DNA of 64,000 nt from a virus. Where the stretch lies: positions 19,018 to 83,017 of the IMG/VR virus record IMGVR_UViG_3300038678_000291; one strand, written 5' to 3'. The notes under the pieces were generated by a model, which was given only the letters and a program-made list of their open reading frames with translations, searched no databases and was not told the DNA's origin. Position numbers and translations under genes: made by a program. How positions within the stretch are numbered: position 1 is the first letter of the stretch; every line of letters begins with the position of its first letter. Positions 34,225 through 54,585 of this stretch are shown here, piece after piece.

Positions 34225-34256
34225 GCGTTTGTGGAGAAAAAGAGGAGACCGTTGCA

Positions 34257-36425: not shown

Positions 36426-36435
36426 GGAGCATAAA

Positions 36436-37644: not shown

Positions 37645-37744
37645 AAACTAGCTGACCGTTTAACCATTTACCGTTTTGGTGGTCGGTAGCTGCGTAACCA
37701 ACGGTTGCTGACCACCAAAGTCAATTTTTACCAAGGAGGTTGAA

Positions 37745-38185
37745 ATGGCTCAAACACGGGATTTAACCAGTGTTTTGAAGATGATTGATTTCCTGCTGCG
37801 GGGTAGCCTGTCAGCAGCAACCCATATCACCAAACCAGTAGACTTGCGGGCTGCTATTACCAATAGCGACCTCACGGAAGTCGTGACCCGCATCATACTC
37901 GGTATGGCAGTTGAATTTGGCGGTGCCGGTACCATCGACATTGAGGTGCTGCATTCCGATGATGTTTCTTTCGGTTGGGTAAGGGTTGGCACAATTGCCC
38001 AAGCATCCGCTGCTGATGGTGCCAACTTCTACCATTCGGAATTCTATAACCTGAAGCGGTATGTCAGGCTACAGATTACCGTGACAGGTGTGGTTGCAGC
38101 AATTTGCATTATCGGTGCTGGCGATCATGGGTTGAGAGAGCCTGTGGTACAGACGGGCACTCAGTTGGTCTATACCGCTGCGTAA
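37745..38185 (+). CDS. Putative head decoration/cement protein
   Basis: Directly after MCP; HSDD...W...KRYVRL pattern. Confidence 0.55.
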   Translation: MAQTRDLTSVLKMIDFLLRGSLSAATHITKPVDLRAAITNSDLTEVVTRIILGMAVEFGGAGTIDIEVLHSDDVSFGWVRVGTIAQASAADGANFYHSEFYNLKRYVRLQITVTGVVAAICIIGAGDHGLREPVVQTGTQLVYTAA

Positions 38186-38235
38186 GAAAAAAGGAATGGG
38201 GGACTGGTGATATTGCCAGTCCCCTAAACCCCACC

Positions 38236-39309
38236 ATGGACACAATTAAAATCAAATTTATCAACACAGACTTGATGAACCATTTTGGGGCGGTAGCAGA
38301 GGTTCCCTATGATTGGGGAATGAAAAGAATAAGCAAGGGTCACGCTATCCTTTACCAGCCCCAAAAAAATACATATACACCGTTATATTTTGCATCTCCC
38401 CAAAAGATAGTTTCCCCTAAAACAAGCGCAGTAATGGGTTTGCGCAAATATCCCGAAATAGTCTGGGTGCAAGATAATAACATCATGGGGGGGGCGGAGC
38501 TTAGCAGCCGCCAAGTCATTAATGTTGGCAGGAGATTAGGGTTTGAAATTCATGTTTTAACCCCACAAAACTTTGATTTTAGTATATTGAGGAATGCAAA
38601 ATTGCTTATCCTCAATAATATTTTTACATTCAACTCTACTCAGATGGTAGAGATCAAGCGGGCAATCTTTGAATTCCAGATTCCCTATATCAAATATGAG
38701 CATGATATGAGAGAGGCATATGATAATAGACTCAGCTTTTCCCGGCGTCTATTCAAACACTCTAAGCTAAACATGTTTATCTCACCTCTACATCTACAGG
38801 AATATCAAACCAAGATTTACGACATGAGTCCTTCCTATACTTTCCCCCTTGCCATTGATGTAGACAGGTTCAAACCAAACCCTAAAATCAAGCGGGATAT
38901 AAAAAAAGTAGTGCATACCTCTGGAAACCTGCATAACAAAGGATTGGTGTCTTTGTTTGCTATGACTAAGCAGCGCAAGGATTTAAGATTTGAAATCTAT
39001 GTGGGCGACAATAATCTCATTGCCCAGATGTTTGCTAAGGCTAAGAATGTTAGGCTGATGCCCAGGATTGACAACGACAAGATGCCAGATGTCTATAGTG
39101 GAGCGGGCTATTTGGTGCATCTGCCGACAGGGGCTTGGGCAGGGGAGCGGGTGGTATTGGAAGCTGCTCTCTGTGGCTGTAAGCTAATAATCAATGACAA
39201 TGTAGGGCATAAATCCTGGGGCTGGGATTTAGAGGACATAGGTGCTCTCAGGGATAAGCTGAAGGTAGCGCCTTATGACTTTTGGCATAGGGTTGAGGAG
39301 GTAATGTGA
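38236..39309 (+). CDS. GT-B (GT4-like) glycosyltransferase with a short N-terminal head-accessory-like domain
   Basis: GGAE motif, AIDVDRFKP, VVLEAALCGC. Confidence 0.8.
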   Translation: MDTIKIKFINTDLMNHFGAVAEVPYDWGMKRISKGHAILYQPQKNTYTPLYFASPQKIVSPKTSAVMGLRKYPEIVWVQDNNIMGGAELSSRQVINVGRRLGFEIHVLTPQNFDFSILRNAKLLILNNIFTFNSTQMVEIKRAIFEFQIPYIKYEHDMREAYDNRLSFSRRLFKHSKLNMFISPLHLQEYQTKIYDMSPSYTFPLAIDVDRFKPNPKIKRDIKKVVHTSGNLHNKGLVSLFAMTKQRKDLRFEIYVGDNNLIAQMFAKAKNVRLMPRIDNDKMPDVYSGAGYLVHLPTGAWAGERVVLEAALCGCKLIINDNVGHKSWGWDLEDIGALRDKLKVAPYDFWHRVEEVM

Positions 39310-39556
39310 AATATAGGCTAAAAGTTTTAGAGAAAACTACTGACATTGAGATTGACGGGGAAATTTCTAGCCTTACAAATAAGATAAAGATTTGCAGATT
39401 ATCCAATAATCTAAAATCGGTTGAGGCAATAGAACAAGTGGGATGAAAGCTTGAAAGTGAATTCCCAGAATTTAAGTGGATTTTTTTGCGTGGAAACGAC
39501 ATTGAAATTTTGGAATTGGAACAAATTGAAAACTGAGGGGATATTGTAATTTTAAG

Positions 39557-39974
39557 TTTAGGTGCGTACCGTTAAATCAAGTAAAGCCAAGAAAGGAGAG
39601 TAAAGTCATGGAAGGTAAGGAAACAGTGCCCCCTACAGAAAACACACAGGGGGAAAAACAAGCTGAGGATTACTTGGATTGGTTGCCAGTTGCAATGCAA
39701 GCCATCAAAGAAGAGCACAATGTTCTGATTGCCAGGATATGTACACTTCTGGAGGCAACAATATCCAGCAATCTCGGTTCACAGCTTACGGCAATCAAAC
39801 GAACCATGAAGGATATTGTGCGTGAGGAGCAGGACAGAATGAATGATTATTTGGATTTACGGGCATATCCTAATCATATTCATTGTGAACCTGCCACATA
39901 TAAGCGGTTTTGGGTAGGCAGCAATAATGGAGTGAAGAACGATTAATTTCTAACCAACACGGTACGCACCTAAA
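39557..39974. repeat. Perfect 16-bp inverted repeat bracketing ORF 39608..39946
   Basis: TTTAGGTGCGTACCGT (39557-72) and ACGGTACGCACCTAAA (39959-74). Confidence 0.85.
39608..39946 (+). CDS. Helical hypothetical protein inside the inverted repeat
   Basis: RBS AAGGAG; 112 aa. Confidence 0.6.
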   Translation: MEGKETVPPTENTQGEKQAEDYLDWLPVAMQAIKEEHNVLIARICTLLEATISSNLGSQLTAIKRTMKDIVREEQDRMNDYLDLRAYPNHIHCEPATYKRFWVGSNNGVKND

Positions 39975-40172
39975 TCATGAGGGAAATGTAATGAGCAGGA
40001 AAAAGGGAAGCAACCCCCCGCCACCCGGCTTTAAGTATCGACCAAAGCCACCACCATCTCCTCCACACAACCGAGGGTGCAAGTGCGGGCAATGCCTAAA
40101 CAATAGCCACCAATCTTTTCGGACAATGGCAGTGAGAAAAAATGAGGCTGGCGGATTCTTAGTGGGGTAACC

Positions 40173-40724
40173 ATGACCTGTATAGTGGGATATGTAGAAA
40201 AAGAAAGGGTTTATATAGGCGGTGATTCGGCAGGATTGGCGGGCTGGAGCAGTCTTGCTAGGGCAGATGAAAAAGTGTTCGTGAAACCCAACAATGGGAA
40301 TCCCATGATATTTGGTTTTACATCTTCATTTAGGATGGGGCAAATAATTAGATATTCGTTTAAGTTGCCGGAGCAATCAAGCAAATCATCAGACTATGAA
40401 TATTTATGCTCAGTGTTTGTAGATGAACTTAGAAAAAGTTTCAAGGACAAGGGTTACTGTGAAGTAAAAGACAACAAAGAAAGAGGCGGGACTTTCCTGA
40501 TGGGATATAAGGGGGCTTTGTATCAGATAAATCCTGATTTTCAGGTTGGTCAATCACTGAAAAATTATGAAGCTGTTGGGTGCGGGCAGGATTTGGCACT
40601 AGGAGCTTTGTTTGCTCTTGAGAATAATCAAGCATCTCCAGACCATAAGATAAAAGTAGCATTACAGGCCGCCACTGAGTTTTCTGGTGCCGTGAGACCC
40701 CCATATAACATTTTGAGCATTTAG
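40173..40724 (+). CDS. Ntn-hydrolase (HslV/proteasome-beta-like) peptidase
   Basis: MTCIVG...GGDS...EKVF...AVGCG..ALGAL; N-terminal Thr nucleophile. Confidence 0.8.
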   Translation: MTCIVGYVEKERVYIGGDSAGLAGWSSLARADEKVFVKPNNGNPMIFGFTSSFRMGQIIRYSFKLPEQSSKSSDYEYLCSVFVDELRKSFKDKGYCEVKDNKERGGTFLMGYKGALYQINPDFQVGQSLKNYEAVGCGQDLALGALFALENNQASPDHKIKVALQAATEFSGAVRPPYNILSI

Positions 40725-41306
40725 TGAGGTGACAAGATGATTAGGTTTATCAAAAACTTGAAACAAGAATTTGGTAGGGTTGGCTATAACCCCCCGCCCA
40801 CCAAAGATTATACCCGGCCAGCGAAGCCCCCACCGGCACCGCCAGCAATACGCAAGGTTAGTTGCAATTGCCCACTTTAGGCAAATGTGTTGTCTTGAAG
40901 GAGGTTTAATATTATGCACTGCGTGACAGACAGATCGGGGAAAATGTTTGTTCCCAATGAACCGAATCGACATAATCCACCAGAAGGCATGGTCGCCCGT
41001 GAAACCAGTAAGCATGGCTACCGGTGCAAGTGCTTTCTGTGCATTAAGCGCCGCCCAACCTTTAGGGAAAAGATGGTGATAAAATGACAGTAGATAATAT
41101 ACTCTTCGTTCATTCAATTCTGCTGGCAATTGGGTTTATTCTGCAATGCGTGTGTTTTAAGCTAATAATAACAGGTTGGAAACTGCTTAAATCAGAAGCG
41201 AGACGGTGATTAAGCGATGAACATAGGAAGCTTTTTGGATGGGATGTTAACTGCGTGTATGATTTTAATTATTTTAGGTATGATTTTTGATTGAGGATAA
41301 ACCTAC

Positions 41307-42302
41307 ATGCGACTCATCTTCAACCTCCTCAATTGCGGTTTGGCCAATAACGGTGGTAGTGACACCATTATCAGGTCGGCAAACACCTTGATGGACTTAG
41401 GCCATAAAGTTACAATAGTTGACAACATAAACTGTAGCTATACCTGGGGGGAGATAAGGGCAGAGCACAGGAAAATCAGGAATCCAGCCGACATTCCCGA
41501 TGCCGATGCAGTCATCTCTACCGGGTTCAAAACGGTAATTGAATCTTTATCGTTTCCTGCCCGGTGCGGTAAGCGATTCCATTGGATTAGGGGGTGGGAG
41601 ACTTGGACTTACCCGGGGCAGTACATAAGATCAACTATATTGGGCTATCCGGTAACAAGAATGGTTAATGGTGTTCAGCTACAGCAAAAGCTGGCTGGTT
41701 ATGGAGTTGCCTCACACCTTGTAAGGCCAGGCTATGATTTTGATAAATTCTTTTTTTCTGAAGCGAATATGAGAAGTTCCGGCTGTGTTGTTGTCGGGGG
41801 CCTTTATAATACTGGCAAAAAGAGGGGCAGCAAACGCACAGAGTGGATATTAGAAACAGCCGCAAGGCTAAAGCGTGAATACAACAATGTCAATCTTACA
41901 ATATTTGGGGTTCACGAAAACCCAAAGATTGATGTTATTGATACTTACCATCAGTTGCCACCGCAAAATCTGACAAACACTATATACAACCTGATTCATA
42001 TCTGGCTGGCTCCCACAATGCTTGAGGGGTTGCACAAGCCCCCCGCTGAGGCGATGCTCACTGAATGTCCAGTGGTAGGAACTGATGCTGAACTGAGTGG
42101 AATGAGTGATTACCTGGTGCATAACAAGACAGGGCTGGTAGCTGAAAATAACCTGGACTCTTTTGTTGAGCATGTCAGTCTTTTGGTGGCAGATAAGGAA
42201 TTGAGAAGGCGGCTGGGTAAGCAGGCTCGGCAGGCAGTCCTGGCATTGGGGAACAGACAGGATAATATGCAGAAGATGGTTGAGGTATTGGAAAATGGCT
42301 AA
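41307..42302 (+). CDS. GT4 glycosyltransferase
   Basis: NNGG, EGLHKPPAEAMLTECPVVGTD, HNKTGLV, LRRRLGKQA. Confidence 0.9.
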   Translation: MRLIFNLLNCGLANNGGSDTIIRSANTLMDLGHKVTIVDNINCSYTWGEIRAEHRKIRNPADIPDADAVISTGFKTVIESLSFPARCGKRFHWIRGWETWTYPGQYIRSTILGYPVTRMVNGVQLQQKLAGYGVASHLVRPGYDFDKFFFSEANMRSSGCVVVGGLYNTGKKRGSKRTEWILETAARLKREYNNVNLTIFGVHENPKIDVIDTYHQLPPQNLTNTIYNLIHIWLAPTMLEGLHKPPAEAMLTECPVVGTDAELSGMSDYLVHNKTGLVAENNLDSFVEHVSLLVADKELRRRLGKQARQAVLALGNRQDNMQKMVEVLENG

Positions 42303-42476
42303 AAATGGTATTTGTACCGCTGGGATAGTTTGTGGATGGATGGTTATCGGGACAGGCACAATAGGGGTTTTTAATCCCAAAATGGTTGCACAGGAACCAC
42401 GGTTGGTTGCAGTTATGTTGATGGCGACAGGGCTAATTATGATATTGGCCTTATTGCTATTGCTAAGTGGGTCAAA

Positions 42477-43949
42477 ATGAGTAAAATGTCTAACTTAAAA
42501 TTCCCTCAGTTGAGCATAGTTACGGCCTGCTATAACGCAGCCCCCTTTATAGGGGACTTATTTAAAAGTCTTGTATGCCAAGATTACCAGAATTGGGAGC
42601 TGGTGATCATTGATGACTGCTCAACCGATAATTCCATTGAAACCATCAAGCTGGCTATCAAGGCATTTGATATAGAGGGTAAGGTCAACCTGCTAACTCA
42701 AAACAAAAACAGGGGGTATGGCTACACACTGTGGAATGCTATCAGACACAGTAGGGGGCCGTTAATTGCCGTGGTGGACGCCGACGACGCCCTAGCCGGG
42801 CATAAAGCCTTATCTGAAACTGTTAAAACTCACAACAAGTATCCAGATGTTGCACTGACATACAGCGATTACATAGAGTGTAACAATAGACTAGAACAAC
42901 GGTCGGTTTATCATACACGGCAACTTAAAAGCTGCGAACAATATATCAATACTAAGATAAGATTAAACCATCTAAAATGTTTTAAGAGAAGCTTTTATGA
43001 TGCCACAGAGGGGGTAAACAAGAAACTGCGGCGATCTGTAGATAAGGATTTAGTATTGAAGTTTGAAGAGGTTGGCAGGTTGTTATATATTCCCACACCA
43101 CTTTACTTATATCGCAAACACAGGAATGGTGTCTCCCGCACCGACCATAAAAAAGGCAAAGAATATATCGCTCAGATAAACAGGACCAGAAAACAGATAT
43201 ATGAAGATGCTTGGATGAGGCGGCAACAATCTCTTACATGGTTAAACCCCGAAAAGTGTCAGGCATTACAGAATAAATGGGGTAATTATAACAGTTTTGG
43301 TAAATGCCCAAATCAGGGAAACAAGAAGGATGTTATAAAAGTCTTAAAACAAGTTATCAGTACATTTGGCAAAGAAAAGCCAAGCGTATTGGATGTAGGA
43401 TGCGGTGCAGGCCATTTTATGTGGGTAATAAAAGACAGAGTATCCAAGTTAATTGGCCTTGACTTTTCGCCTGAGATGCTCAAACTAACCAGAAAACAAT
43501 TTGCCAAAACAATGATAATACCAGAACTTCTTTATGAGTCATGCTGGAAAATCCCGTTGCCCGATAACTCTGTTGATATTGTGTATCAGGTTGATGTGGC
43601 TATGCACATAGGGGGAAGTTGGGAATCAATCCAAGAGATGATGCGGGTCAGCAGGAAATATATAATTTTTACCGGCCCATCGTTTGAGTCAAACCTTACA
43701 ACTGAAATGGATATGCCGATGGGATCAGGAAAAAGGTGGGCAGTTAGCATCCCACTTTTAAAGCGGAAGCTGGGAAAATTAGAGTCTAATGGTGAAATCA
43801 AATCATATGATTTTAGAAAAAGAGTGCCAACATCGGTTTATAACCATAAAATTCTTGTGATAGAAAAACCAACGGAATGCCCGGAAAGCTCAAAGATGTT
43901 CTCCTTGCTTACCCCGCAAGTATGTAGGCGGGAGGCAGTTGCGCTATGA
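42477..43949 (+). CDS. GT2 glycosyltransferase fused to a class I SAM methyltransferase
   Basis: SIVTACYN, IIDDCSTD, VDADD, LYLYRKH; C-terminal VLDVGCGAG, GLDFSPEML, PLPDNSVD. Confidence 0.9.
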   Translation: MSKMSNLKFPQLSIVTACYNAAPFIGDLFKSLVCQDYQNWELVIIDDCSTDNSIETIKLAIKAFDIEGKVNLLTQNKNRGYGYTLWNAIRHSRGPLIAVVDADDALAGHKALSETVKTHNKYPDVALTYSDYIECNNRLEQRSVYHTRQLKSCEQYINTKIRLNHLKCFKRSFYDATEGVNKKLRRSVDKDLVLKFEEVGRLLYIPTPLYLYRKHRNGVSRTDHKKGKEYIAQINRTRKQIYEDAWMRRQQSLTWLNPEKCQALQNKWGNYNSFGKCPNQGNKKDVIKVLKQVISTFGKEKPSVLDVGCGAGHFMWVIKDRVSKLIGLDFSPEMLKLTRKQFAKTMIIPELLYESCWKIPLPDNSVDIVYQVDVAMHIGGSWESIQEMMRVSRKYIIFTGPSFESNLTTEMDMPMGSGKRWAVSIPLLKRKLGKLESNGEIKSYDFRKRVPTSVYNHKILVIEKPTECPESSKMFSLLTPQVCRREAVAL

Positions 43950-44734
43950 ACCAAGAATATATACCCAAAATCAGTGTGGCAATGGCTTGCTACAACTCGG
44001 CTAAATACCTTAAAGCAGCCATTAAGAGCATATTGAGGCAGACATATACAAACTGGGAGATTGTTTTTGTAGAAGATATGTCAACAGATAATACAGCGCA
44101 TCTGCTTAAAAAATATATCGTAAAATATTCTTTAAAGGAGAAGGAAATTGTAATTCGGCACAATGAAAACCTGGGGTATGGTACCAGCCTACATGATGCC
44201 ATTAAGTACGGCACAGGTGAACTTGTGGCCGTGGTAGATTCAGATGATGCGCTGGCCGGTAAATATGCCTTCGCTAAAATGGTTGAAGCACACAGGACGC
44301 ATCCCGATGCATCACTGTGTTACAGTACATATTATTTTTGCCGGAACAAACTAAGCACAAGATTTGTTAAAGATGTTATCCCTATTCCCGCCGGGCAAAC
44401 TTATCTGTATACATTGCTAAACCCAGGAACAAGGGGGAACGGAAAGGGGTTATATCATAGGGTTAGCCACCTGAAAGTATTTAAGCGGGCTTGCTATGAT
44501 AGAACCGAAGGGTTGATGCGGGGGTTAAGGAAGGCAGTTGATCGGGATTTGGTGCTGAAGCTAGAGGAAGTGGGGCAATTGATATTCATAAACGAGCCGT
44601 TATACATCCACCGCAAACATGACGGGAATATTACGAACTTGTGGGGGGAGATGTCTAAAGCAGAGAGGGCTGAGATTATAGCTGCTAAAAAACAGATAAT
44701 AAGAAATGCCCAGGTACGGAGGGGGATGGTATGA
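43946..44734 (+). CDS. GT2 glycosyltransferase (paralog of the previous GT2 domain)
   Basis: ISVAMACYN, EDMSTD, VDSDD, AVDRDLVLKLEEVG. Confidence 0.9.
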   Translation: MNQEYIPKISVAMACYNSAKYLKAAIKSILRQTYTNWEIVFVEDMSTDNTAHLLKKYIVKYSLKEKEIVIRHNENLGYGTSLHDAIKYGTGELVAVVDSDDALAGKYAFAKMVEAHRTHPDASLCYSTYYFCRNKLSTRFVKDVIPIPAGQTYLYTLLNPGTRGNGKGLYHRVSHLKVFKRACYDRTEGLMRGLRKAVDRDLVLKLEEVGQLIFINEPLYIHRKHDGNITNLWGEMSKAERAEIIAAKKQIIRNAQVRRGMV

Positions 44735-44756
44735 AATTTACTTTATTTGAGCGGAT

Positions 44757-45695
44757 ATGAAAATATATTTAGATAAGGTAAAAAAAGAGGCTGTTCTGCG
44801 CCTAGTGCCTTATTGGGAAAAAGTTGGCTGTGAAATGGTTGACAGTTCCAATAAAGCAGATATTCACCTATCGTCGGCAAGCATAAAAAGCTCTGTAGAA
44901 TCAAAATTAATATTAAGGCTGGATAGCATTAAATGGGATAAAAACGAGAATTATGAGAGACAAAACCAAGTTATAGGCCATGCTCATTCAATGGCAGATG
45001 GGATAATCTACCAAAGTAATATTTCAAAGCAGATGGGCGAGAAATACTTGACTGAAAGAAAGACTGATAATTATACAGTGATTTATAATGGCATTGATCC
45101 TGTGGGCTGGAATAATCCAGTACCCCATACAGGCATAAATATTATGGCTTGTGCAAAATGGCGAAGGTGGAAAAGATTAAAGGAGATAACTGAAGTGTTC
45201 TTAATGTTTTTGGAAAAGCATCCAAGCTCACTATTGCATGTTTTGGGGAGATTTATAAGCGGTGCGAACACTAGAAAAATACCACATAAAAACATAATTT
45301 ACTATGACAGGGTTACTTATCCAGAAATCAAAAAGATTTATGAAATAGGCGATGTTTTTATTCACTTATGCAAAAACGATAGTTGCCCTAATGTGGTAGT
45401 TGAGGCTATAGCGGCGGGGATGCCCGTGATAACCACCAATGCCTGTGGTGGGGCTACTGAGATGTGCAGGCTAACCCCTGGATGCGTAGTTGTTGATGAA
45501 GGAATGCCGGAATTAGAAGCTGCTTATATTCATAGCGACAAACACAATATTATGCTAGGTGGTGTAAGAATGAATATCATAGAAACTATTGGACAAGTTG
45601 TTAGAGGTAAAACTAGAGTAAAATTACCCGATGTACTTATGGCTAAAACAGTAGCGGCTAAATATTTATCTGTGATGGAGAGAGCATTGTGCTAG
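44757..45695 (+). CDS. GT4 glycosyltransferase
   Basis: IYNGID, DSCPNVVVEAIAAGMPVI. Confidence 0.9.
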   Translation: MKIYLDKVKKEAVLRLVPYWEKVGCEMVDSSNKADIHLSSASIKSSVESKLILRLDSIKWDKNENYERQNQVIGHAHSMADGIIYQSNISKQMGEKYLTERKTDNYTVIYNGIDPVGWNNPVPHTGINIMACAKWRRWKRLKEITEVFLMFLEKHPSSLLHVLGRFISGANTRKIPHKNIIYYDRVTYPEIKKIYEIGDVFIHLCKNDSCPNVVVEAIAAGMPVITTNACGGATEMCRLTPGCVVVDEGMPELEAAYIHSDKHNIMLGGVRMNIIETIGQVVRGKTRVKLPDVLMAKTVAAKYLSVMERALC

Positions 45696-46273
45696 ATGTA
45701 AGGTATGAACAATATGTGAAATGTCAAATCAATGAAAACAGAAAAAAATTAGAAGAAAACCCCTGTATCCATTGGGCTACTGAAAAAGAGATGAAAATAT
45801 TAACAGCATATATAAAAAACAACATGGGTGTGGTTGAATTCGGGATGTGCCATGGAGTTAGAAACGGATGGGAAGTGGAAGAGCTAAGAAAGTCTCTTAT
45901 GTGTGATGTTATTGGTACAGAAATAGCACCAACAGCAAAAAGATATAAACACGTTTTTCAGTGGGACTTCCATAATATAAAAAATGAATGGAAAAACAAG
46001 TTTGATTTCATTTACAGCAATTCATTAGATCATGCCTATGACGCAGAACACTGTATTAATCAATGGCTAAGTTGCCTTAATGATAAAGGGAAGTGTTTCA
46101 TTCAGTGGCAAGTTAGACATGACAAGAGTGTGTCGTGGAATTTTGAAGAATTGGTTGTTAATTCTGGAAAATTCAAAATAAACGATATAATAGTTTTTGA
46201 TCATCCGTGGCGAAAGTTCAGAGTAAACTTATATGTTTTGCAAAATGAGCTTAATGGTGTGGTAGTGCAATGA
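45689..46273 (+). CDS. SAM-dependent methyltransferase-like protein
   Basis: CHGVRNG.E, IGTEI, FDFIYSNSLDH, L...G..F. Confidence 0.7.
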   Translation: MLDVRYEQYVKCQINENRKKLEENPCIHWATEKEMKILTAYIKNNMGVVEFGMCHGVRNGWEVEELRKSLMCDVIGTEIAPTAKRYKHVFQWDFHNIKNEWKNKFDFIYSNSLDHAYDAEHCINQWLSCLNDKGKCFIQWQVRHDKSVSWNFEELVVNSGKFKINDIIVFDHPWRKFRVNLYVLQNELNGVVVQ

Positions 46274-47199
46274 ACATCTATGTTGATGGTAGCAAGCGCC
46301 ATGCAGTTTCCAGAATGTTCCCTGTATGGGAGTCTCTGGAGCATGCTGTAGTAAACAAGCCGGGTAAAGCTGACATACAATTATCGGTGGTCAGGATCGG
46401 CAATGATACGGGGTTGCCAATTGTGTTGAGAGTTGACGGTGTGTATTACGACAAAGACATTGATTATAAGCACACCAATTTGTCAATTTGCAAGGCTCAC
46501 CGTAAGGCCAATGCAGTTATCTATCAATCTAATATGGCGAGACAAATGTGTGAACGATATTTAGGCGAGCGACAGGGGCCATATAGTATAATCCATAACG
46601 GCATTGACCCATCTGGCTGGAATAATCCGGTGGCTCACACAGGTATAAATATATTCTGCTGTGGTAAGTGGCGCAGGCCGAAACGATTAGAGGAGACAAT
46701 TAAAGTATTTAACCTCTTTAGGGAGAGATTCCCTTTTGCCAATTTATGGGTCATTGGTGGATTTAAGAAGGGCGGTAAGCCCATCCCAGGCGAAAACATT
46801 ACTTATTGCGGGCAGATTGATCATGAGAAAATGCAGGGATTATATAGAATTGGTGATATGTTCTTACATCTGTGTAAAAAGGACTCTTGTCCCAGTTCAG
46901 TAGTTGAGGCTATAGCGGCGGGGATGCCCGTGATAACCACCAATGCCTGTGGTGGGGCTACTGAGATGTGCAGGCTAACCCCTGGATGCGTAGTTGTTCC
47001 GGGGGAGGCCGAAGGCACAGACCCAGATTATATTTATCGGGATGCCTACAACAAAATGCCTAAAGATGTGATGATTAATATGGTTAAGGAAATGATAGAA
47101 ATTACTGAGAATAACCTAATAACATCATTGCCCTATGAATTGACAATTGAGCATGCCGCTAAGAAATACTTGGATGTTTTTGAGGGGATTATCCACTAA
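46270..47199 (+). CDS. GT4 glycosyltransferase (paralog of 44757..45695)
   Basis: IHNGID, DSCPSSVVEAIAAGMPVI. Confidence 0.9.
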   Translation: MNIYVDGSKRHAVSRMFPVWESLEHAVVNKPGKADIQLSVVRIGNDTGLPIVLRVDGVYYDKDIDYKHTNLSICKAHRKANAVIYQSNMARQMCERYLGERQGPYSIIHNGIDPSGWNNPVAHTGINIFCCGKWRRPKRLEETIKVFNLFRERFPFANLWVIGGFKKGGKPIPGENITYCGQIDHEKMQGLYRIGDMFLHLCKKDSCPSSVVEAIAAGMPVITTNACGGATEMCRLTPGCVVVPGEAEGTDPDYIYRDAYNKMPKDVMINMVKEMIEITENNLITSLPYELTIEHAAKKYLDVFEGIIH

Positions 47200-47213
47200 G
47201 AGAGGAGTAACCA

Positions 47214-47831
47214 ATGTCTGTATCAGAGAAAAACATTGACAAAAAGCTAGATGATACTTTCTACCAGAAAACATTGCGTCCAGACCGCCAACAATCATAC
47301 AAGCTGATCGCCAAATTCATCACCAGAATAGCATGGCCCCATCAGGCACAAAGTGCAGTGGATTATGGTTGCGGTGCTGGCTGGATTTTGCGCTGGCTAA
47401 ACCATTACGGGGTTACTGACTTGATCGGGATTGAACCTAACCGGGCCGCTGCTTCGGTTATGAACCCGGCAACAAAAACTTGGGTTGAGTTTCGGTCATT
47501 AAGGCGAAGAATAAACCTGGATCGCAAGTTTGACCTGGCTGTATGCTTAGAGGTTGGGGAGCACCTTGAAGAGAGATATGCTGACTTGCTGGTGGAAAAC
47601 ATAACCAAATCTACCGACCTTCTAATATTCTCTGCGGCTACCCCGGGGCAGGGGGGCTGGGGTCATGTCAATGAGCAGCCGCTTGAATACTGGAAAGAGA
47701 AGCTAAGGCTGGTAGGCTTCCTCAACCTCCAGAGCATGACTGCCAAGTTTAGGGTTTATCTGGAAAACAAGGGTGCCAAGAAGTGGTATTGCAATAATAT
47801 TGCGGTATTTGAGAGGGGGATAGTAACTTGA
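47214..47831 (+). CDS. Class I SAM methyltransferase
   Basis: VDYGCGAG, FDLAVCLEVGEHL, FSAATPGQGG.GHVNEQ. Confidence 0.88.
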   Translation: MSVSEKNIDKKLDDTFYQKTLRPDRQQSYKLIAKFITRIAWPHQAQSAVDYGCGAGWILRWLNHYGVTDLIGIEPNRAAASVMNPATKTWVEFRSLRRRINLDRKFDLAVCLEVGEHLEERYADLLVENITKSTDLLIFSAATPGQGGWGHVNEQPLEYWKEKLRLVGFLNLQSMTAKFRVYLENKGAKKWYCNNIAVFERGIVT

Positions 47832-48000
47832 GCAAAAATTGCTGGCTTCATAAAGATCGTTTATGCAGTCCTAACTGCCTTGCTTTTCATGATCAATCTT
47901 CAACTGGAAAAGGGTGCTTGCTTCTTGATGGTTTCAGTTCACTAATTAAGCTGGAAAAATATTTATCAACGACTAAAGCAATGCTTATAAAAAACAAACC

Positions 48001-48894
48001 ATGAACTACATAACTCGCAAAATAAACATTGACGGCAAACAGTGGCTATGCCGGTTAGAAGAGAACGGCGGCGGCATCCAGCGCTTCTTGCGGGGCAAGA
48101 ATGCTACCAACGGTAAGTTGCGGGAGCCTGAGCTATTCTACATTCTCAAGCGGGAAGTCAGGCCAGGAATGACAGTTATGGATTTGGGCGCCAACTTGGG
48201 CTACCTAACCATGTTTTTCGCTGGAGCGGTGGGGAATACGGGCAGGGTATATGCGGTTGAACCTGATCCGATTAATTATAGCATGCTATGGCATAATGTA
48301 GAACTAAACCATATTGGACACATAGTGAAGCACAGTCAAATGGGAATTTCTAACACAAGTGGAGTTGTTGATTTCTACCCTGGCAAGGAGGAGCGGAACC
48401 TGGGCAGCATTAAGAAACACATAAAGTCCAACGGGAAAGCCATCGAAATACAGGTGCATCCCTTAACCACCTATTTCAAAAAACGAGAGCGTTTGCCAGA
48501 TTTAATCAAGATGGACGTAGAGGGGCATGAGGTTGAAATCCTGGAAGGGGGGTTTGACCTGTTTAGCCAGCAGGACTTTCCCTGTAAGATAGTCATGGAA
48601 CTGCACCCGACATTATATTCCAGTGAGCAGAAAATGGAGCAGCGGGTCAGGGCATACCTGGGCATAGGGTTTCAGATTAAATATGTTGTGTCGGCTGGAG
48701 TGCCCGTGCCGGATAAGTTCGGAGAGTGGGGATATACGCCGGTTGCAACCTTTCGGGATAAGCGGGGAGTGTATGAAGGATTCTCGGTTGACCATGCGAT
48801 CCAGGCTTGCTGCTATCGGCATCAGCAATGGATGCCGGGAAAAAAGCGGTATTCGCCTAAGATTGCTAGGTATTTGATGATTGAGAGGGCTTAA
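48001..48894 (+). CDS. FkbM family methyltransferase
   Basis: DLGANLGY, VYAVEP, LIKMDVEGHE.EIL.G. Confidence 0.92.
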   Translation: MNYITRKINIDGKQWLCRLEENGGGIQRFLRGKNATNGKLREPELFYILKREVRPGMTVMDLGANLGYLTMFFAGAVGNTGRVYAVEPDPINYSMLWHNVELNHIGHIVKHSQMGISNTSGVVDFYPGKEERNLGSIKKHIKSNGKAIEIQVHPLTTYFKKRERLPDLIKMDVEGHEVEILEGGFDLFSQQDFPCKIVMELHPTLYSSEQKMEQRVRAYLGIGFQIKYVVSAGVPVPDKFGEWGYTPVATFRDKRGVYEGFSVDHAIQACCYRHQQWMPGKKRYSPKIARYLMIERA

Positions 48895-49167
48895 GTGAAT
48901 GCCGTGTTACGATTGTGGGAAAAAGTATGGGGGCGATGATTGGATCGAGGCTGTTATTCCAGACTTGATTTGGGAAGTGATCAGTCCAACGAAGGGCAAA
49001 AATCCAGATGGAGGTATTCTTTGTATATCTTGTATGGCATGCCGATTAAAAGAAGCTGGATATACAAAAGTCCCTGTTTGGCTCTGCGGGACCGAACCCT
49101 TTAGGGCCGTAGAAGGTGATCCATCAGATAATTTGAGTTTATTGAAAACCTACAAACAAAAAACAAT

Positions 49168-50112
49168 ATGAACATAACTTATATTTACCACGAATACCGA
49201 AATCGCCGTAAGCGATATGCCGATGAGATGACTAAGCTGGGGCATAAAGTGTCTTTGCTCCCCGTGGCGAACAAGAAAGCTCCCGGCCTGATTACCTGCC
49301 AGCAGATTAAGGATACTAAACCTGACCTCCTTTTCCTGCTCAGTCCATTCTATATCGCCAACAAGGTAATCACTGATGAGGCTATTGCCTGGGCCAAGAA
49401 CAGGGGCACCCCCATTGTCTGTTATTCAACCCTCAACACCCAGGTACCGTTTACGGAAATGAATGCGACATGGAAAGCCTTTGATATATTCTTTGCTCAG
49501 CAGAGGCAATTGACAACACACCTGAAATCAATAGGAGTGAATGCTCACTATATGCCGCTTGGCTTTTATCCCGATCAGTATCCGCCGAGGAGGGGAGCAA
49601 AGACCCTGCCTATATCGTTTATGGGCAACCCTCAGACTACAGTCAATGGTAGCGACAAGCGAGTTGAGTATGTGAAGACACTAGCAGGACGTGGCATTAA
49701 AGTATGGGGCAAGGCGTTTAATGGTAAAGGGATTGAGGCTAAAGCATTCAACGGCCACGCAAGGCAATGTGAAGTTTATGCGCAGAGTAAAATCAACTTA
49801 GACTTGCCATTCATAAACTCAGCACACCCGTTTTATGCTAACATGTATCACCTTAAGAACCGCTTCTTTGAGGTACCAGCCACCCAAAATTTTCTGCTTA
49901 CGGCAATGTGCGGGGAGTTCACGGATATATTGGGCGAGGACATGGTGGGCTACTATGATGACAGCCCAGAAGGGTTGCGGACGGCGGTTCATGAATATCT
50001 GGGGAATGATGCCCTGCGTCAGGGGATGGCTACCCGTGCTCATGTCGAGGTAATGGCTAAGCATACTTTTGGGCATAGGTTTAGGGAAATGTTTAGAGTA
50101 TTAGAGGTATAA
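49168..50112 (+). CDS. CgeB-like GT-B glycosyltransferase
   Basis: YAQSKINL, NRFFEVPA..NFLLT, HTF.HRF. Confidence 0.85.
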   Translation: MNITYIYHEYRNRRKRYADEMTKLGHKVSLLPVANKKAPGLITCQQIKDTKPDLLFLLSPFYIANKVITDEAIAWAKNRGTPIVCYSTLNTQVPFTEMNATWKAFDIFFAQQRQLTTHLKSIGVNAHYMPLGFYPDQYPPRRGAKTLPISFMGNPQTTVNGSDKRVEYVKTLAGRGIKVWGKAFNGKGIEAKAFNGHARQCEVYAQSKINLDLPFINSAHPFYANMYHLKNRFFEVPATQNFLLTAMCGEFTDILGEDMVGYYDDSPEGLRTAVHEYLGNDALRQGMATRAHVEVMAKHTFGHRFREMFRVLEV

Positions 50113-50440
50113 GAAATGGAATGGATGATAGAAGATGCAACAATCCCGTTGGCTTCTTTTGGGGCATTTGGACATAAATTTGTTTTCACATTGTTTGAAT
50201 TATATCTTGGCCTTTATGATAATTATGGATTTAGGCTCTTTACCATCGTGGTTCATAGTAAAGAACAATACTATAAGTATACAGGGAGTTTGTTGGGATT
50301 GTCGCTTGATACAACGGGGTCGATTACGGTACGCATCCAGTTTTTGTTTCATCGAATAATTATCAGTAAATTGCAAAAACATAATCCCTTTACTTTCTTC
50401 TATGAGCCGGGCTCATTGTTTTGTAAAAGGTGAACCATTA

Positions 50441-51004
50441 ATGGGGACTGAACGGGGACCGGGATTTTACACTGGTGACAAATACATGAAGCCGGAAATT
50501 TATGCTCGCTATGAGCCAGTATACCGGCAGGCGGTTAGCCTTTTGCCTCCCCCTGGTGTTTGCCCCAGGATTATTGACTTAGGGTGCGGGGTTGGGCATT
50601 TTGCCCGCATGGTAGACGAAGGAGGCTATGCAGGCTATCTGGGCATTGACTTCTCAGAGCAAATGTTAGAGAAGGCCAGAGCGAATGCACCAGGGCTTCA
50701 GTTTGTACAAGGGGATTTATTGGAAAGATCGTCTCAGTGGATTTATAATAATAATGGGATTTTTGTCTTACTCGAAGTATTAGAACACATTAAAGATGAT
50801 TTGGCAGCCCTGGATAATATCTCCTTCGGTAGCCAAGTCATATTTTCAGTACCGAGTTTTGATGCCCGCTCCCATGTGAGGCGTTTTAAGAATACCGGGG
50901 CGGTTATTGCTAGATATGGGCACTTGCTAAGGTTTGATAAAATTGTACAGTTGCCTTGGGGCAAGTCAAACAAGGTGTTTATGTTCAAGTGTGAGCGAAT
51001 ATGA
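50441..51004 (+). CDS. Class I SAM methyltransferase
   Basis: IDLGCGVG, GIDFS..ML, LEVLEHI.DD. Confidence 0.88.
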   Translation: MGTERGPGFYTGDKYMKPEIYARYEPVYRQAVSLLPPPGVCPRIIDLGCGVGHFARMVDEGGYAGYLGIDFSEQMLEKARANAPGLQFVQGDLLERSSQWIYNNNGIFVLLEVLEHIKDDLAALDNISFGSQVIFSVPSFDARSHVRRFKNTGAVIARYGHLLRFDKIVQLPWGKSNKVFMFKCERI

Positions 51005-52014
51005 AAACATTTTGGCTATTTAGAACCAACTTACGGCAGTTTGAATACTACCATCAGTATACCAACCTGGCCGAATTCAAGAAGAAATGCCATGATTTTT
51101 ATCTGTTACAGGGCATCTGGTTTTTAGAGAATGGCATATTTGACGAAGTGGTTATCTGGAGGCTTACACCAAAAGACGTTAGTGAAACAGAGATAGTATT
51201 TGACATTAACGGAAAGAAATTTATACAACGATTTGTGCATAATTTTGATGAATGCTTTTACCACCAGAGCCCAAGTATTACATTTTTTAGGGGGGGGTTC
51301 CCCGAATATGGGAAGCTTACCAAAACGCTACCTGATTATTTTGGGCTAAGCCTCTATTGCGGGACAGGGCAGCGAGTAAGGCCGCGGCACGGCGGGGAAT
51401 ATAGCAAGATACTGGTGGAAGATGACCTGGATTTAGAAAATGGTGATATCCCGTTTTACAAGACGGCTAATCAGCAAATATTTAGACCGATAAAGGCAGA
51501 ACAGCAATATGACATCTGCTGGCCTTGCAATTTCAGCCAGATTAACTGCAAGGGCCAGCAGTTCTTTATCGACGAAGTAGGGAAATCAGCATATTTGAAG
51601 CAGCTTAAAATTTTACATGTGGGTAATAAGCCGGAGATGGGCAGGAAGCTATGTAAACAGTGCAGGGTATCAAACATTGAATTCGCAGGGTATGTTTCCA
51701 GACCAGAATTAAACACCCTGTTAAATCAGAGCAAGCTAGGTTTGATCACTTCAAACCAACTTGATGGTAGCCCCCGAATACTCACTGAGATAATGGCATC
51801 GGGAATTCCGCTGTTAATCAATGGTTGGACAAGGAGACTGAAGTATTACCATAGCGGGGCTGTTGTGGGGTTCCCTCAAGGCGGCATAGAGGCTAGAACA
51901 GCAGAAGCAATGAGAAACTATGCACGGCTAAAGCGAAGGGCACTGGCGGGCTTAGAATGCCTCTCAATGGATACTATTTGCAAACTGAACCTAAGCCAGT
52001 GGGGGTTAGCGTGA
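51001..52014 (+). CDS. GT4-like glycosyltransferase
   Basis: KGQ, NIEFAGYV, DGSPRILTEIMASGIP. Confidence 0.8.
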   Translation: MKTFWLFRTNLRQFEYYHQYTNLAEFKKKCHDFYLLQGIWFLENGIFDEVVIWRLTPKDVSETEIVFDINGKKFIQRFVHNFDECFYHQSPSITFFRGGFPEYGKLTKTLPDYFGLSLYCGTGQRVRPRHGGEYSKILVEDDLDLENGDIPFYKTANQQIFRPIKAEQQYDICWPCNFSQINCKGQQFFIDEVGKSAYLKQLKILHVGNKPEMGRKLCKQCRVSNIEFAGYVSRPELNTLLNQSKLGLITSNQLDGSPRILTEIMASGIPLLINGWTRRLKYYHSGAVVGFPQGGIEARTAEAMRNYARLKRRALAGLECLSMDTICKLNLSQWGLA

Positions 52015-52967
52015 AAGGCTCAAAAGTAGCAGTCTACTTCTGCAACGGCATAGGCAACCTCCTTATGATGACACCGGCAATCCAAGCCCTGAGCAAGTTA
52101 TACGGTGATTCCAAGGTGGATATTGTAATGCCTTCTGAGTGGAACGATTACCGTGCTCCGATTATAAAGGACATTCTTAACCGCTGGGGATTAATTGGCA
52201 AGGTGATAAGCTTTCCGGTGGATAAATTCTATCCCAAAAGTTACAAACTATTATTCACCACGGCCCATTGTGAGCCTTCACAGGCTGCCAGTCTGTTCCA
52301 GCAAAAAGGGAATAAGTTTGGGAAAGCTGACTGGCTAACCGATTATCCGCATGAGATTGAATACTACATGTCCGAGGTTTATGGGCTTGGTTATAAAGGG
52401 TTGACCCCACCCATCGTAGCACCAATGGCAGAGCAGCCCACATTACAGGGCGATAAGCCCAAGATAGCTTTTTATAATGGGGCGGCCAGCCTATCAAAAC
52501 GATACAGGTGGGAACGAAAGAGATGGGATAGATTTGGGGAATTGGCAGAGGAACTGCACAGCTACCATGGGGCGGACATTGTTTTTCTTGGAGGAAAGTC
52601 TGAGCAAAAAGAGGGGAAAAGGTTAGCCGGTAAGTTCGAATTTGTTACTAACTATGCCGGTAATCTGTCTTTCATGGAGTCTGTCAAGGCGCTAAGCCAA
52701 TGCAAGCTAATGATAAGCACGGATTCAGCATTGATGCACGCAGCCGGGGCCGTAGATGTTCCGGTGGTAGCTTTATTCGGAGCAACCATGGTGAGCAAAA
52801 ACCGCCCCTACTCCGGCAAGCATGCCATAGTGAGAGGTAAATGTGCTTATGCCCCCTGTCAGTACAGGAGTCAATTTTACACATGCAAGGATTTTAAATG
52901 CATGGATAGTATTTCAGTTGGGCAGGTAATGCAAGCTGTGAGAGAAATGGGGGTGCAACGACAATGA
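52011..52967 (+). CDS. GT9 (heptosyltransferase-like) glycosyltransferase
   Basis: GIGNLLM.TPAI.AL, KRW..F.ELA, ISTDSALMHAAGAVDVPVVALFG.T, C.PC...C..F.CM. Confidence 0.9.
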   Translation: MKGSKVAVYFCNGIGNLLMMTPAIQALSKLYGDSKVDIVMPSEWNDYRAPIIKDILNRWGLIGKVISFPVDKFYPKSYKLLFTTAHCEPSQAASLFQQKGNKFGKADWLTDYPHEIEYYMSEVYGLGYKGLTPPIVAPMAEQPTLQGDKPKIAFYNGAASLSKRYRWERKRWDRFGELAEELHSYHGADIVFLGGKSEQKEGKRLAGKFEFVTNYAGNLSFMESVKALSQCKLMISTDSALMHAAGAVDVPVVALFGATMVSKNRPYSGKHAIVRGKCAYAPCQYRSQFYTCKDFKCMDSISVGQVMQAVREMGVQRQ

Positions 52968-53198
52968 ACTTCTTGCTGTATTGGGGAATAACAGCTATAA
53001 GTGTAATCCTTGTGGTGTTTTGGTTCTGGGGTGGTGTTGGTATTCTTTGTATTGATCGAAATCGTTCAGGTGATCGAGGATTAATGAAAATAATAGTAAA
53101 AATGATTGTGAAATACAGGGTTTTGGTGTTTTTTGTCCATATAACATTGTGGCCTTCTTTGCTTATGTACGTAAGCAAATAATTCAAGGGGTATTTTA

Positions 53199-53846
53199 AT
53201 GGCAACCGACATAATGGTAGTTAGAGATTATGAACTAACAACCAAAACAGCCCTACAGAATTACCTGGGCATCAATGATGACACCCCAGAGCTATTTGTG
53301 GCTATCCGACTCATGAAGGCGGCCACTGATTTTATTGAGGGTCAATTGATAAGCTCGGATATTATGCAAGGGGGATATTGCTCCCGCCGATTTAAAGCCA
53401 CTGATTATGCCCTGGCGAAATATTCTGGGGAGGGATTTAGGGATTTGCTAATGAGGCAATATCCGATTAATTCCATTACCACGATCATAATTGGCGATAC
53501 AACCGAATTCCCGTCTGGATCAGATACCCTGGCCGACCTGGGATTTTATATTGACGCTGACATTACGGGAAATATTATAAACACCGGGATTTGGCCTACA
53601 GGTGATCCCCAAAACATACAGATTACCTATAATGCGGGTTTTGCTGAGATTCCTTATGATTTAGAAATGGCCGCCATTGGGATGGTAGCTTTGAAATATA
53701 ATATATACAAGGAGCACTCGGAAGGATTCAAATCAGAAAAGAAGGGGCTATATACCTACACCATGGCCGATATTGACAAAGACAATCCCTTCGGCGGCGG
53801 GCTGATTAAGGATATACTGGATCAATTTAGGAAGCCAACATTTTGA
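53199..53846 (+). CDS. Head-tail connector/adaptor (HK97 gp6-like)
   Basis: LTT...L..YLGI, AATDFIE, ITYNAGF..IP.DL..A. Confidence 0.85.
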   Translation: MATDIMVVRDYELTTKTALQNYLGINDDTPELFVAIRLMKAATDFIEGQLISSDIMQGGYCSRRFKATDYALAKYSGEGFRDLLMRQYPINSITTIIIGDTTEFPSGSDTLADLGFYIDADITGNIINTGIWPTGDPQNIQITYNAGFAEIPYDLEMAAIGMVALKYNIYKEHSEGFKSEKKGLYTYTMADIDKDNPFGGGLIKDILDQFRKPTF

Positions 53847-54166
53847 GTTACCCATCATTACTAAACCTAATCTGTGATATACAGGAAGAGACGGTTACTT
53901 ACTCTGATACTGGCTCCCCGTCAACGGCTTGGGCAGACAAGGCGACCAATGAAAAGTGCGGGATACAGCCAGCATCCGGCGGTCTGGTAAGTGCCGAATA
54001 TGCAGAGCGGTATAATATAACCAATGTGGGATTCTTTTTAATCAGTGCGGATATAGTAGCTGGAAATAAGGTGATTGTGGGTGGCACTGAATATATAGTC
54101 AAGCGGGTATTTGATGCTGCTGGCAGGGGGCACCACAAAGAAGTTGGGCTGGAGTTGAAAGCATGA
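53843..54166 (+). CDS. Head closure protein
   Basis: Position; DAAGRGHH.EV C-terminal motif. Confidence 0.75.
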   Translation: MSYPSLLNLICDIQEETVTYSDTGSPSTAWADKATNEKCGIQPASGGLVSAEYAERYNITNVGFFLISADIVAGNKVIVGGTEYIVKRVFDAAGRGHHKEVGLELKA

Positions 54167-54585
54167 ACAAGTACCCGCAGATCAATCCAGATGATTATCA
54201 ACAAGGCTCACCAGAGAGAGTTTTAGCTGAATACCTGGTTGCCTGGCAAAACGAAGATTGGAATAAGATGCTGGGGTCTACTCAGTTAACCTGGCGCAGC
54301 CAGACAAAAGAGGCAACCGAAAGGCTGAAGGCTCAGCATGAATTCATGAAGCTAAAAGGGGCTGAAATGATAAGCGCCAAGACCCCGCCTGGTGTCAATG
54401 GTTCAGTATGTCAGGACATAATTGCCACCATCTTTTATACCGTCCCGGCGGGAGAGAAAAAATTTAGAAAAATGGTTAAGGAAAAGAAAATTAAGGCAAG
54501 GCTTATTCGCGAATCCGCTCCCTTTAAGGCAGATAAAGATGGCGAGTGGGGAGTTAATCCGGTATCGGCATTGAGGACGGCTTAA
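54163..54585 (+). CDS. Hypothetical protein in the neck module
   Basis: Translationally coupled ORF ending GEWGVNPVS. Confidence 0.55.
   Translation: MNKYPQINPDDYQQGSPERVLAEYLVAWQNEDWNKMLGSTQLTWRSQTKEATERLKAQHEFMKLKGAEMISAKTPPGVNGSVCQDIIATIFYTVPAGEKKFRKMVKEKKIKARLIRESAPFKADKDGEWGVNPVSALRTA

Follow-up and report, generated by a model that had tools for sequence, protein, structure and literature searches.

Why would a phage keep a long run of sugar- and methyl-transferring enzymes between its capsid gene and its neck genes? The question is raised by a 64,000-nucleotide stretch of DNA (hereafter the window), which corresponds to bases 19018–83017 of a linear 83,017-bp IMG/VR virus record (IMGVR_UViG_3300038678_000291) and which carries, at positions 38236–52967, an island of genes encoding glycosyltransferases (GTs) and S-adenosylmethionine (SAM)-dependent methyltransferases (MTases). 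On gene context alone, the island probably, though by no means certainly, directs phage-encoded, late, cytoplasmic glycosylation of capsid proteins.

Pfam scans recovered nine GTs and five SAM-MTase domains in the island, all on the plus strand (Table 1), with two GTs and one MTase at or below the Pfam thresholds. The nine GTs counted in the initial annotation are thereby confirmed, including the sub-threshold GTa, the first GT, which has a GT-B model, and the enzyme starting at 51001, which scores exactly at the cut-off. Four of the five claimed MTase domains are confirmed as well, but that at 45689–46273 is only tentative: it is sub-threshold, lacks a GxGxG motif and has no match in PDB (phmmer) or among PHROGs. 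The island is indeed co-oriented within the morphogenesis operon, flanked by the gene for the major capsid protein (MCP) upstream and by the head-tail adaptor and Neck1 genes downstream. This bears out the proposed capsid-to-neck placement, except that a putative cement protein gene, o146, intervenes before the island and that the segment 39310–41306 holds no sugar enzyme. The reported absence of sugar-nucleotide, flippase and polymerase genes holds throughout the 83-kb record (79% complete), which was searched in full, as does that of a priming gene: the record gave no Epimerase or NTP_transferase match, no Bac_transf priming enzyme and no open reading frame (ORF) with eight or more hydrophobic or transmembrane segments. 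It likewise contains no integrase and no resolvase.

What ties the island to the capsid is its position in relatives. A megablast search of positions 34000–54000 against deposited phages gave no match, and a search of IMG/VR with the single MCP found no loci, an alignment query being needed. In all, 234 MCP homologues were found, and the late-region proteins of the window were mapped by tblastn onto 162 loci that surround homologues of the MCP and were collected from IMG/VR, JGI metagenomes and GTDB genomes. After deduplication these comprised 28 distinct MCP lineages without an island, 27 with GTa and 20 more distant, uninformative ones. GTa starts 53–4149 bp after the MCP stop codon in 27/27 lineages carrying it, at MCP identities to the window of 28–49%. 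A search of IMG/VR with the GTa alignment only retrieved 18 loci, in all of which an MCP gene immediately precedes GTa (at identities to the MCP of the window as low as 28%), and GT9 follows 0.6–4 kb further on in 12 of them, the remainder being truncated loci or long islands. In the island-less lineages, o166 (a 166-aa ORF after the neck genes) starts 3.1–3.5 kb past the MCP stop, as against 18.3 kb in the window. In a quick maximum-likelihood tree of the MCP with a midpoint root, the GTa-bearing sequences are paraphyletic and 22 island-less ones form one fully supported clade; on this midpoint rooting, the pattern would fit long vertical co-inheritance of GTa and MCP, followed by loss.

The synteny survey for an MCP-GT island-connector order that the initial annotation had called for shows that the frame MCP-GTa…GT9-adaptor recurs in relatives: wherever the DNA reaches that far (loci L003, L049, L163 and L165), the island closes with a homologue of GT9, after which comes the adaptor gene. 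The same order in these independent assemblies from other samples excludes in practice the misassembly of host DNA which had been named as grounds for abandoning the reading. A chimeric contig could be suspected from the heterogeneous GC content of the island genes (0.34–0.49), and from the occurrence of the stretch in one sequencing run only, a marine-sediment DNA metagenome that is probably its source. No RNA run was listed with the stretch, and contigs of the DNA run cover essentially none of it. Yet an 81,460-bp contig, one of the closest relatives by MCP (70–89% identity), has a 70%-identical MCP together with a 65%-identical GT9, and the island continues its flanks in strand, GC skew and gene packing, so that we regard an assembly artefact as scarcely credible.

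Between these fixed ends the content of the island varies. The smallest islands (L049 and L163) occupy ~2.7 kb and consist of GTa, a PIG-L-like gene and GT9 alone between the MCP and adaptor genes, while those of L003 and L165 measure ~6.7 and ~9.8 kb, respectively. The 15.5-kb island of the window is the largest fully bounded one among the relatives examined, which upholds in part its description as unusually elaborate, but at least three relatives (L099, L171 and L172) have islands of more than 10 kb that run past the fetched DNA. The GT2s and MTases of the window have no homologues in relatives at 1e-5 (tblastn; GT4c gave one weak match at 1e-4), and homologues of GT4b, 33–37% identical, occur in the islands of L003, L004, L089, L099 and L122. 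The island of L172 encodes GT4 and CgeB-like GTs as well as MTases, and that of L168 two GT-D-like enzymes, a polysaccharide pyruvyl transferase, a sulfotransferase and an MTase. Others contain WbqC and a sulfotransferase (L165), a DegT aminotransferase (L164) or a PIG-L-like deacetylase (L163). A further 68 ORFs of relatives include eight GT-D-like, four Glyco_trans_1_2 and two GT2 enzymes, several MTases, a sugar-nucleotide epimerase/dehydratase, a GFO/IDH/MocA oxidoreductase, PIG-L, sulfotransferase and radical-SAM/B12 proteins. The presence of such tailoring enzymes at the same spot implies that the product is a decorated glycan whose structure varies by lineage, much as with O-antigen loci.

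Endonuclease-like ORFs were observed between the MCP gene and the island in two relatives (L165:3483–4241, with a NUMOD3 motif, and L163:250–774, with DUF559), which suggests homing-endonuclease traffic at this junction.

GTa and GT9, which frame the island, appear to belong together. The AlphaFold model of GTa (ten homologues, predicted local distance difference test score (pLDDT) 84) has a GT-B/GT4-like fold, preceded by a ~40-aa N-terminal mini-domain and a disordered linker (residues 42–69). Its Foldseek matches include HepE, GlgM, BshA, PimB' and Gtf3, with probability 1.0 to HepE, BshA, PimB', GlgM and PimA; a GT4-type C-lobe is therefore evident in the predicted structure, at a Pfam score of 16.6 vs 25 bits. 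Relatives of GTa numbered 210 at E ≤ 1e-30 when 1.84 billion representatives were searched with a profile, and the nearest Atlas clusters are 100% viral, hence the family looks virus-specific. GTa had no tblastn match in 50,697 deposited phage records and GT9 belongs to no PHROG, which means that the module is known only from uncultured viruses. Among the top 150 representatives, 13 combine GTa and the phage-type GT9 in one polypeptide, seven in the order GT9-GTa and six as GTa-GT9. That fusions arose independently in either order is a classic sign of two enzymes working in one pathway. Searches of IMG/VR for the genomic context of the fused proteins gave nothing.

The GT9 gene had given rise to the idea of heptose use and lipopolysaccharide (LPS) mimicry. 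We found little to sustain it beyond the family itself. The Pfam match covers the C-lobe only (profile positions 98–241 of PF01075), where the donor-binding motifs common to WaaF and WaaC (K-RW, DSxxMH and P-V-ALFG) are kept, and WaaF is the best solved relative. However, the protein scores below every NCBIfam heptosyltransferase cut-off (87.3 vs 134.6 for TIGR02195, HepII, with other models lower). Its close homologues, about 24, form a tight clade, with close GT9 homologues present on contigs of 81,460, 81,872 and 53,958 bp, beyond which E-values drop from 1e-47 to 1e-9. All 22 of 22 clade members have an N-terminal G-I/L-G-N motif (GIGN in the window), whereas two cellular GT9 sequences have GD, the Asp of which we take to be the catalytic Asp13 of WaaC. 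An Asn would accordingly replace the catalytic Asp, a correspondence drawn from motif and position, as the N-lobe alignment to cellular GT9 is not statistically significant. The phage protein (322 aa, with no extra N-terminal domain) further differs from WaaC and WaaF by a C-terminal cluster of four Cys (C-x4-C-x8-C-x4-C) and by being encoded alongside a capsid gene. An ADP-heptose donor would follow from family membership only.

The same family resemblance lends itself to a different target, the host envelope. Soluble GT4 and GT2 enzymes with terminal methyltransferases build ABC-transporter-dependent O-antigens, which FkbM and class I MTases cap (WbdD), and the combination of GT9 with GT4 is that of the LPS core (WaaC and WaaF, CAZy family GT9, with the GT4 enzyme WaaG). 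Like WaaC and WaaF, the phage GT9 is a soluble GT-B enzyme and is paired with an enzyme of GT4 fold. The island's soluble GTs and MTases could thus modify lipid A-core, or an undecaprenyl-linked O-antigen-like chain, from the cytoplasmic side of the inner membrane; once exported by the host's MsbA or Wzm/Wzt, the product would alter the cell surface and thereby block superinfection or the adsorption of progeny to debris. MTases of the O-antigen-capping kinds, a probably diderm host, and the nearest NCBIfam names of the GT2 and GT4 genes, all enzymes of exopolysaccharide, teichuronic or colanic acid synthesis though far below cut-off, agree with such a role. We nevertheless consider it unlikely, although it is the foremost rival. 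A host-conversion moron would not be expected to stay so strictly and for so long with the capsid gene as GTa does, over MCP identities of 28–49%, and the island sits in the late operon with neither a promoter nor a terminator of its own. Moreover, in the record (79% complete) neither an integrase nor any polytopic membrane protein, GtrA/GtrB-like or otherwise, is encoded, such that the hallmark of Gtr-type lysogenic conversion, a polytopic GT near an integrase, was not found. The distinctness of the GT9 clade from cellular heptosyltransferases and the wholly viral clusters nearest to GTa point the same way.

That enzymes resembling WaaC can act on proteins is exemplified by TibC, a WaaC-like GT-B protein O-heptosyltransferase which modifies Ser in the cytoplasm and whose four-Cys iron finger contacts the protein substrate (PMC4358343). 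TibC was not retrieved with the phage GT9 by phmmer at E ≤ 0.01. We examined whether the latter could be a member of the bacterial autotransporter heptosyltransferases (BAHT; TibC/AAH) and rejected this assignment: TibC has an N-terminal β-barrel and a β-hairpin thumb, both missing from the phage protein, and a C-x2-C-x15-C-x11-C spacing with a catalytic Asp-110 in place of the C-x4-C-x8-C-x4-C spacing and Asn of GT9 (PMC4358343). More speculatively, and with more doubt than conviction, GTa and the Asn-variant GT9 might constitute a pair of enzymes, specific to viruses, by which the glycosylation of HK97-type capsids is primed, as a counterpart of TibC/AAH, with the remaining genes as a fast-swapping "glyco-serotype" cassette (methyl, sulfate, pyruvate and amino sugars); many sediment phages would then bear lineage-specific coats under diversifying selection.

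If a virion protein is modified, two candidates lie next to the island. Besides the MCP, the intervening gene o146 encodes a small protein whose predicted structure resembles the cement protein of phage BPP-1 (3j4u_H; TM-score 0.55–0.57) and the Carin1 capsid (8cjz_A) in Foldseek. Its nearest Atlas clusters are 85–90% viral and carry PF21190 (Bbp16) in 14–29% of members. Like Bbp16 (PDB 3J4U), o146 would be a small jelly-roll encoded beside an HK97-type MCP gene, but it has no direct Pfam match and no PDB match by phmmer; it is probably a capsid cement or decoration protein. The minimal islands lack o146, which favours the MCP as acceptor. The other side of the problem is that acceptor searches gave no signature: no Ser/Thr-rich tracts were found in the structural ORFs, and a single MCP column has Ser/Thr in island-bearing but not in island-less lineages, at which the window has Ile.

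This lack of a signature leaves room for another target, be it a tail or fibre protein, a small Pro-rich ORF, a host protein, or else a free methylated oligosaccharide, whether soluble or secreted. The tail region encodes a protein with a ConA-like lectin fold (Laminin_G_3), and the ~2-kb segment free of sugar enzymes that interrupts the island contains three small Pro-rich ORFs around o183, an HslV-family peptidase-like gene (hence an Ntn-hydrolase/proteasome-like gene within a glycosylation island) with no PDB match by phmmer. The three small ORFs have in common N-P-P-P, a Pro-rich stretch and C-x-C(-x2-C), and could be paralogous peptides or chance ORFs. The genes of this segment are, however, not kept alongside GTa and GT9 in relatives: o112 and o183 had no tblastn matches in the loci of relatives, and the minimal islands are confined to GTa, the PIG-L-like gene and GT9. 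We deem a target of this kind rather improbable.

Glycosylation of modified bases in phage DNA, as by the T4 α- and β-glucosyltransferases, had also been listed as an alternative. Phage GTs that build glycans on 5-hydroxymethylcytosine are on record (bioRxiv 10.1101/2023.12.21.572611), and the T4 α-glucosyltransferase is among the GT-B matches of GTa, at Foldseek rank 31. Yet no hydroxymethyl-pyrimidine pathway was found, as the 83 kb contain no thymidylate-synthase-like hydroxymethylase (PF00303) and no C5-MTase (PF00145). A search for Tet/JBP (PF12851) was empty as well, but its control gave no match anywhere either, so that it carries no weight. The island lies in the head module and not in a replication or nucleotide module, and nine GTs, together with the sulfo-, pyruvyl- and amino-sugar enzymes of relatives, far exceed known DNA glycans. 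DNA hypermodification is therefore a very unlikely function of the locus.

The expression signals of the island were read from the DNA. Start codons often overlap the preceding stop codon by 4 nt, the genes are tightly packed, and no plus-strand terminator excess was detected in the island region; this spacing fits one operon. AAGGAGG sites are strong for the MCP, o146 and o166 genes and mostly missing for the GT genes, which fits production of the latter in catalytic rather than structural amounts. The hairpin with a T-run behind the MCP gene may act as a leaky terminator and so reduce expression of the genes that follow. A GC-rich 9-bp hairpin was additionally noticed at 38199–38224, 11 nt upstream of the GTa start, and the two could serve, through attenuation or RNA stability, to reduce expression on passing from the structural genes to those of the enzymes. 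As to composition, GT4c (GC 0.38) and the tentative MTase MT194 (0.34) stand apart from the other island genes (0.41–0.49) and the structural genes (0.47–0.51). The spread fits piecemeal acquisition of the island, and the GT4c-MT194 pair (44757–46273) suggests a separate, more recent one.

Taken together, the capsid linkage and the lack of export, sugar-nucleotide, lysogeny and hydroxymethyl-pyrimidine genes in the 83-kb record favour late cytoplasmic glycosylation of head proteins. In the mechanism that we propose, the island would be transcribed within the head-to-tail late operon, and GTa and GT9 would start or anchor a glycan on a capsid-surface protein, namely the HK97-type MCP, the Bbp16-like cement protein or both. 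The other seven soluble GTs, of the GT4, GT2 and CgeB-like kinds, would extend this glycan with host nucleotide sugars, and four to five SAM-methyltransferases would O-methylate it, giving a methylated heteroglycan on the virion head, while the middle of the island would act as a swappable cassette that sets the type of glycan for each phage lineage. We infer here the virion-protein acceptor, the order of the enzymes, the donor sugars and the benefit, be it shielding, stability or adsorption. The methylated glycan coat that had been postulated at the outset is thus supported by context, i.e., the capsid linkage, the GTa-GT9 fusions and the swapped tailoring enzymes, but not by any acceptor signature. 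Besides the two negative acceptor searches, several points weigh against head glycosylation. The phage is uncultured, and any virion glycan is predicted from its genes. The junction between the MCP and connector genes could simply be a tolerated insertion site. The island proteins have no sequence similarity to the proven enzymes of mycobacteriophage Corndog. With its GT9 and GT4 being an LPS-core pair and with host exporters possible, the missing flippase and polymerase leave a host-envelope target viable. Finally, absences from the record are provisional at its estimated completeness (CheckV).

To our knowledge, the only phages for which virion glycosylation by phage-encoded enzymes has been demonstrated are a few actinobacteriophages, which use two to four genes for it. 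The initial annotation had rightly pointed to this precedent: according to PMC12363180 and PMC13313380, citing Freeman 2023, GTs of the mycobacteriophages Che8, Corndog and Myrna themselves glycosylate the capsid and tail-tube proteins. Corndog genes 35–38 lie in the head module. As in the island, the GTs of these phages (in some also a methyltransferase) are phage-encoded, soluble and without export machinery. The Corndog genes have a head-module position comparable to that of the island between the MCP and adaptor genes, and a capsid-protein glycan, demonstrated in the mycobacteriophages, is proposed for the island. A blastp comparison of Corndog gp34–38 and gp41 with all island proteins gave nothing below E 0.4. 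The two loci also differ in scale and order, since Corndog has four genes in ~2.75 kb, which precede the protease gene, whereas the island, with nine GTs and five MTases, is much larger and follows the MCP gene. Its core is a GT4-like GTa with a GT9, and its host is probably a diderm marine-sediment bacterium, not an actinobacterium.

A more distant parallel is chlorovirus PBCV-1, in which virus-encoded soluble GTs and a methyltransferase domain produce a methylated MCP glycan in the cytoplasm, independently of the host endoplasmic reticulum and Golgi. The proposed role of the island is likewise that of a virus-encoded, cytoplasmic, methylated capsid glycan; PBCV-1, however, belongs to the giant viruses of eukaryotes, its MCP is a double jelly-roll, and its enzymes are presumably unrelated. 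What is specific to the island is the GTa…GT9 frame, the GTa-GT9 fusions, the Asn-variant GT9 clade and the breadth of tailoring at one locus in a sediment phage lineage.

Table 1. Features of the window in and around the GT and MTase gene island.
Feature	Position	Strand	Evidence and remarks
Endolysin, 164 aa	17552-18046	+	single-domain Amidase_2
Terminase large subunit	25364-27148	+	late morphogenesis operon
Portal	28844-31090	+	
Protease-scaffold, 738 aa	34209-36425	+	
HK97-type MCP, upstream island anchor	36436-37644	+	PF05065 E 4e-39; phrog_10
Hairpin and T-run after MCP stop codon	37677-37735	+	read from sequence
o146, predicted jelly-roll capsid cement/decoration protein, Bbp16-like, 146 aa	37745-38185	+	AlphaFold2 pLDDT 81; between MCP gene and island
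GTa, first GT	38236-39309	+	Glyco_trans_1_2 E 0.008, sub-threshold; AlphaFold GT-B/GT4-like
Insert without sugar enzymes, ~2 kb	39310-41306	+	peptidase-like gene and small ORFs
o112	39608-39946	+	within the insert
Three small Pro-rich/CxC ORFs	39991-40170, 40738-40880, 40915-41086	+	~47-60 aa; flank o183
o183, HslV-family peptidase-like, 183 aa	40173-40724	+	phrog_1040 E 4.5e-18; starts MTCIVG
Two tiny hydrophobic ORFs before GT4b	41085-41210, 41218-41295	+	
GT4b, GT4	41307-42302	+	PF00534 E 1.7e-12
GT2-SAM-MTase (class I) fusion	42477-43949	+	PF00535 E 2.7e-24 (residues 13-174); PF08241 E 1.2e-14 (residues 305-393); VLDVGCGAG
GT2	43946-44734	+	PF00535 E 1.4e-29
GT4c, GT4	44757-45695	+	PF00534 E 1.3e-12; GC 0.38
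MT194, tentative MTase-like protein	45689-46273	+	PF13489 E 1.4e-4, sub-threshold; no GxGxG; GC 0.34
GT4d, GT4	46270-47199	+	PF00534 E 2.4e-13
Class I SAM-MTase	47214-47831	+	PF13489 E 8.7e-9; motif DYGCGAG
FkbM-family MTase	48001-48894	+	PF05050 E 1.4e-18; TIGR01444 85.6 bits, cut-off 37.7
o90, small Cys-rich protein	48899-49171	+	no family match
CgeB-like GT, Glyco_trans_1_2	49168-50112	+	PF13524 E 2.5e-15
Class I SAM-MTase	50402-51004	+	PF13649 E 2.1e-10; motif IIDLGCGVG
GT4e, GT4-like	51001-52014	+	PF00534 26.4 bits, equal to cut-off; homologues in L003, L004, L099
GT9, last island gene	51957/51999-52967	+	PF01075 83.4 bits, cut-off 22
72-aa ORF between the GT9 and adaptor genes, two hydrophobic segments	52964-53182	+	hydropathy scan; no family match
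Head-tail adaptor, downstream island anchor	53199-53846	+	phrog_442 E 1.8e-17
Neck1	54585-55064	+	
Tape-measure-like protein	57146-59542	+	

Among the remaining features, the hydrophobic ORFs at 41085–41210, 41218–41295 and 52964–53182 are possible membrane peptides inside the head operon. Several short ORFs raised the question of recoded stop codons, which was answered in the negative, the GT and MTase ORFs being full length under table 11. The protease-scaffold contains at least four CxxC…CxxC zinc-ribbon-like repeats in its middle and C-terminal part (e.g., CVECDK…CRSC and CLECGK…CPLCEGC), which is unusual in a scaffold. As for the host, the Amidase_2 endolysin implies that it has peptidoglycan, and the single-domain form of this enzyme suggests that it is probably a diderm bacterium. 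An archaeal host, to which relatives binned in metagenome-assembled genomes (MAGs) of Thermoplasmata and Heimdallarchaeaceae might point, was rejected on account of this peptidoglycan endolysin and because MAG binning of viral contigs is unreliable. The endolysin gene is directly followed by that of a patatin-like phospholipase (PF01734, E 1.9e-24; the pair spans 17552–19082 on the plus strand), a possible membrane-acting lysis accessory. In locus L176, a DnaX fragment with lid and domain III only (PF12169 and PF22608; 1696–2304, plus strand) is found among tail-side genes, and the record also has a gene for an N6/N4 DNA methylase (PF01555; 7269–8600, minus strand). The tail region of the same locus (contig G000, bases 2750–3121, plus strand) also has a 123-aa ORF that by eye resembles the o146 jelly-roll family, with GG..D..EVL.S.D..F and KYLKVK motifs and, at the N-terminus, a short stretch rich in Ser/Thr; this could be a second decoration-like protein.

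If head glycosylation is the true function of the island, virion glycosylation would reach into a wide lineage of uncultured phages from marine sediments, whose hosts are probably diderm and which would carry it out with enzymes unrelated to those known. It would have a simple and testable core, one GT4-like and one GT9 enzyme beside the capsid gene and sometimes fused, around which the remaining pathway would be exchanged in the manner of an O-antigen locus, with a bearing on phage stability, adsorption in sediments and evasion of recognition. The lineage would then also be a source of soluble protein-directed GTs and of glycan methyl- and sulfotransferases for glyco-engineering, and the GT9 clade with Asn at the position of the catalytic Asp poses a biochemical question in its own right.

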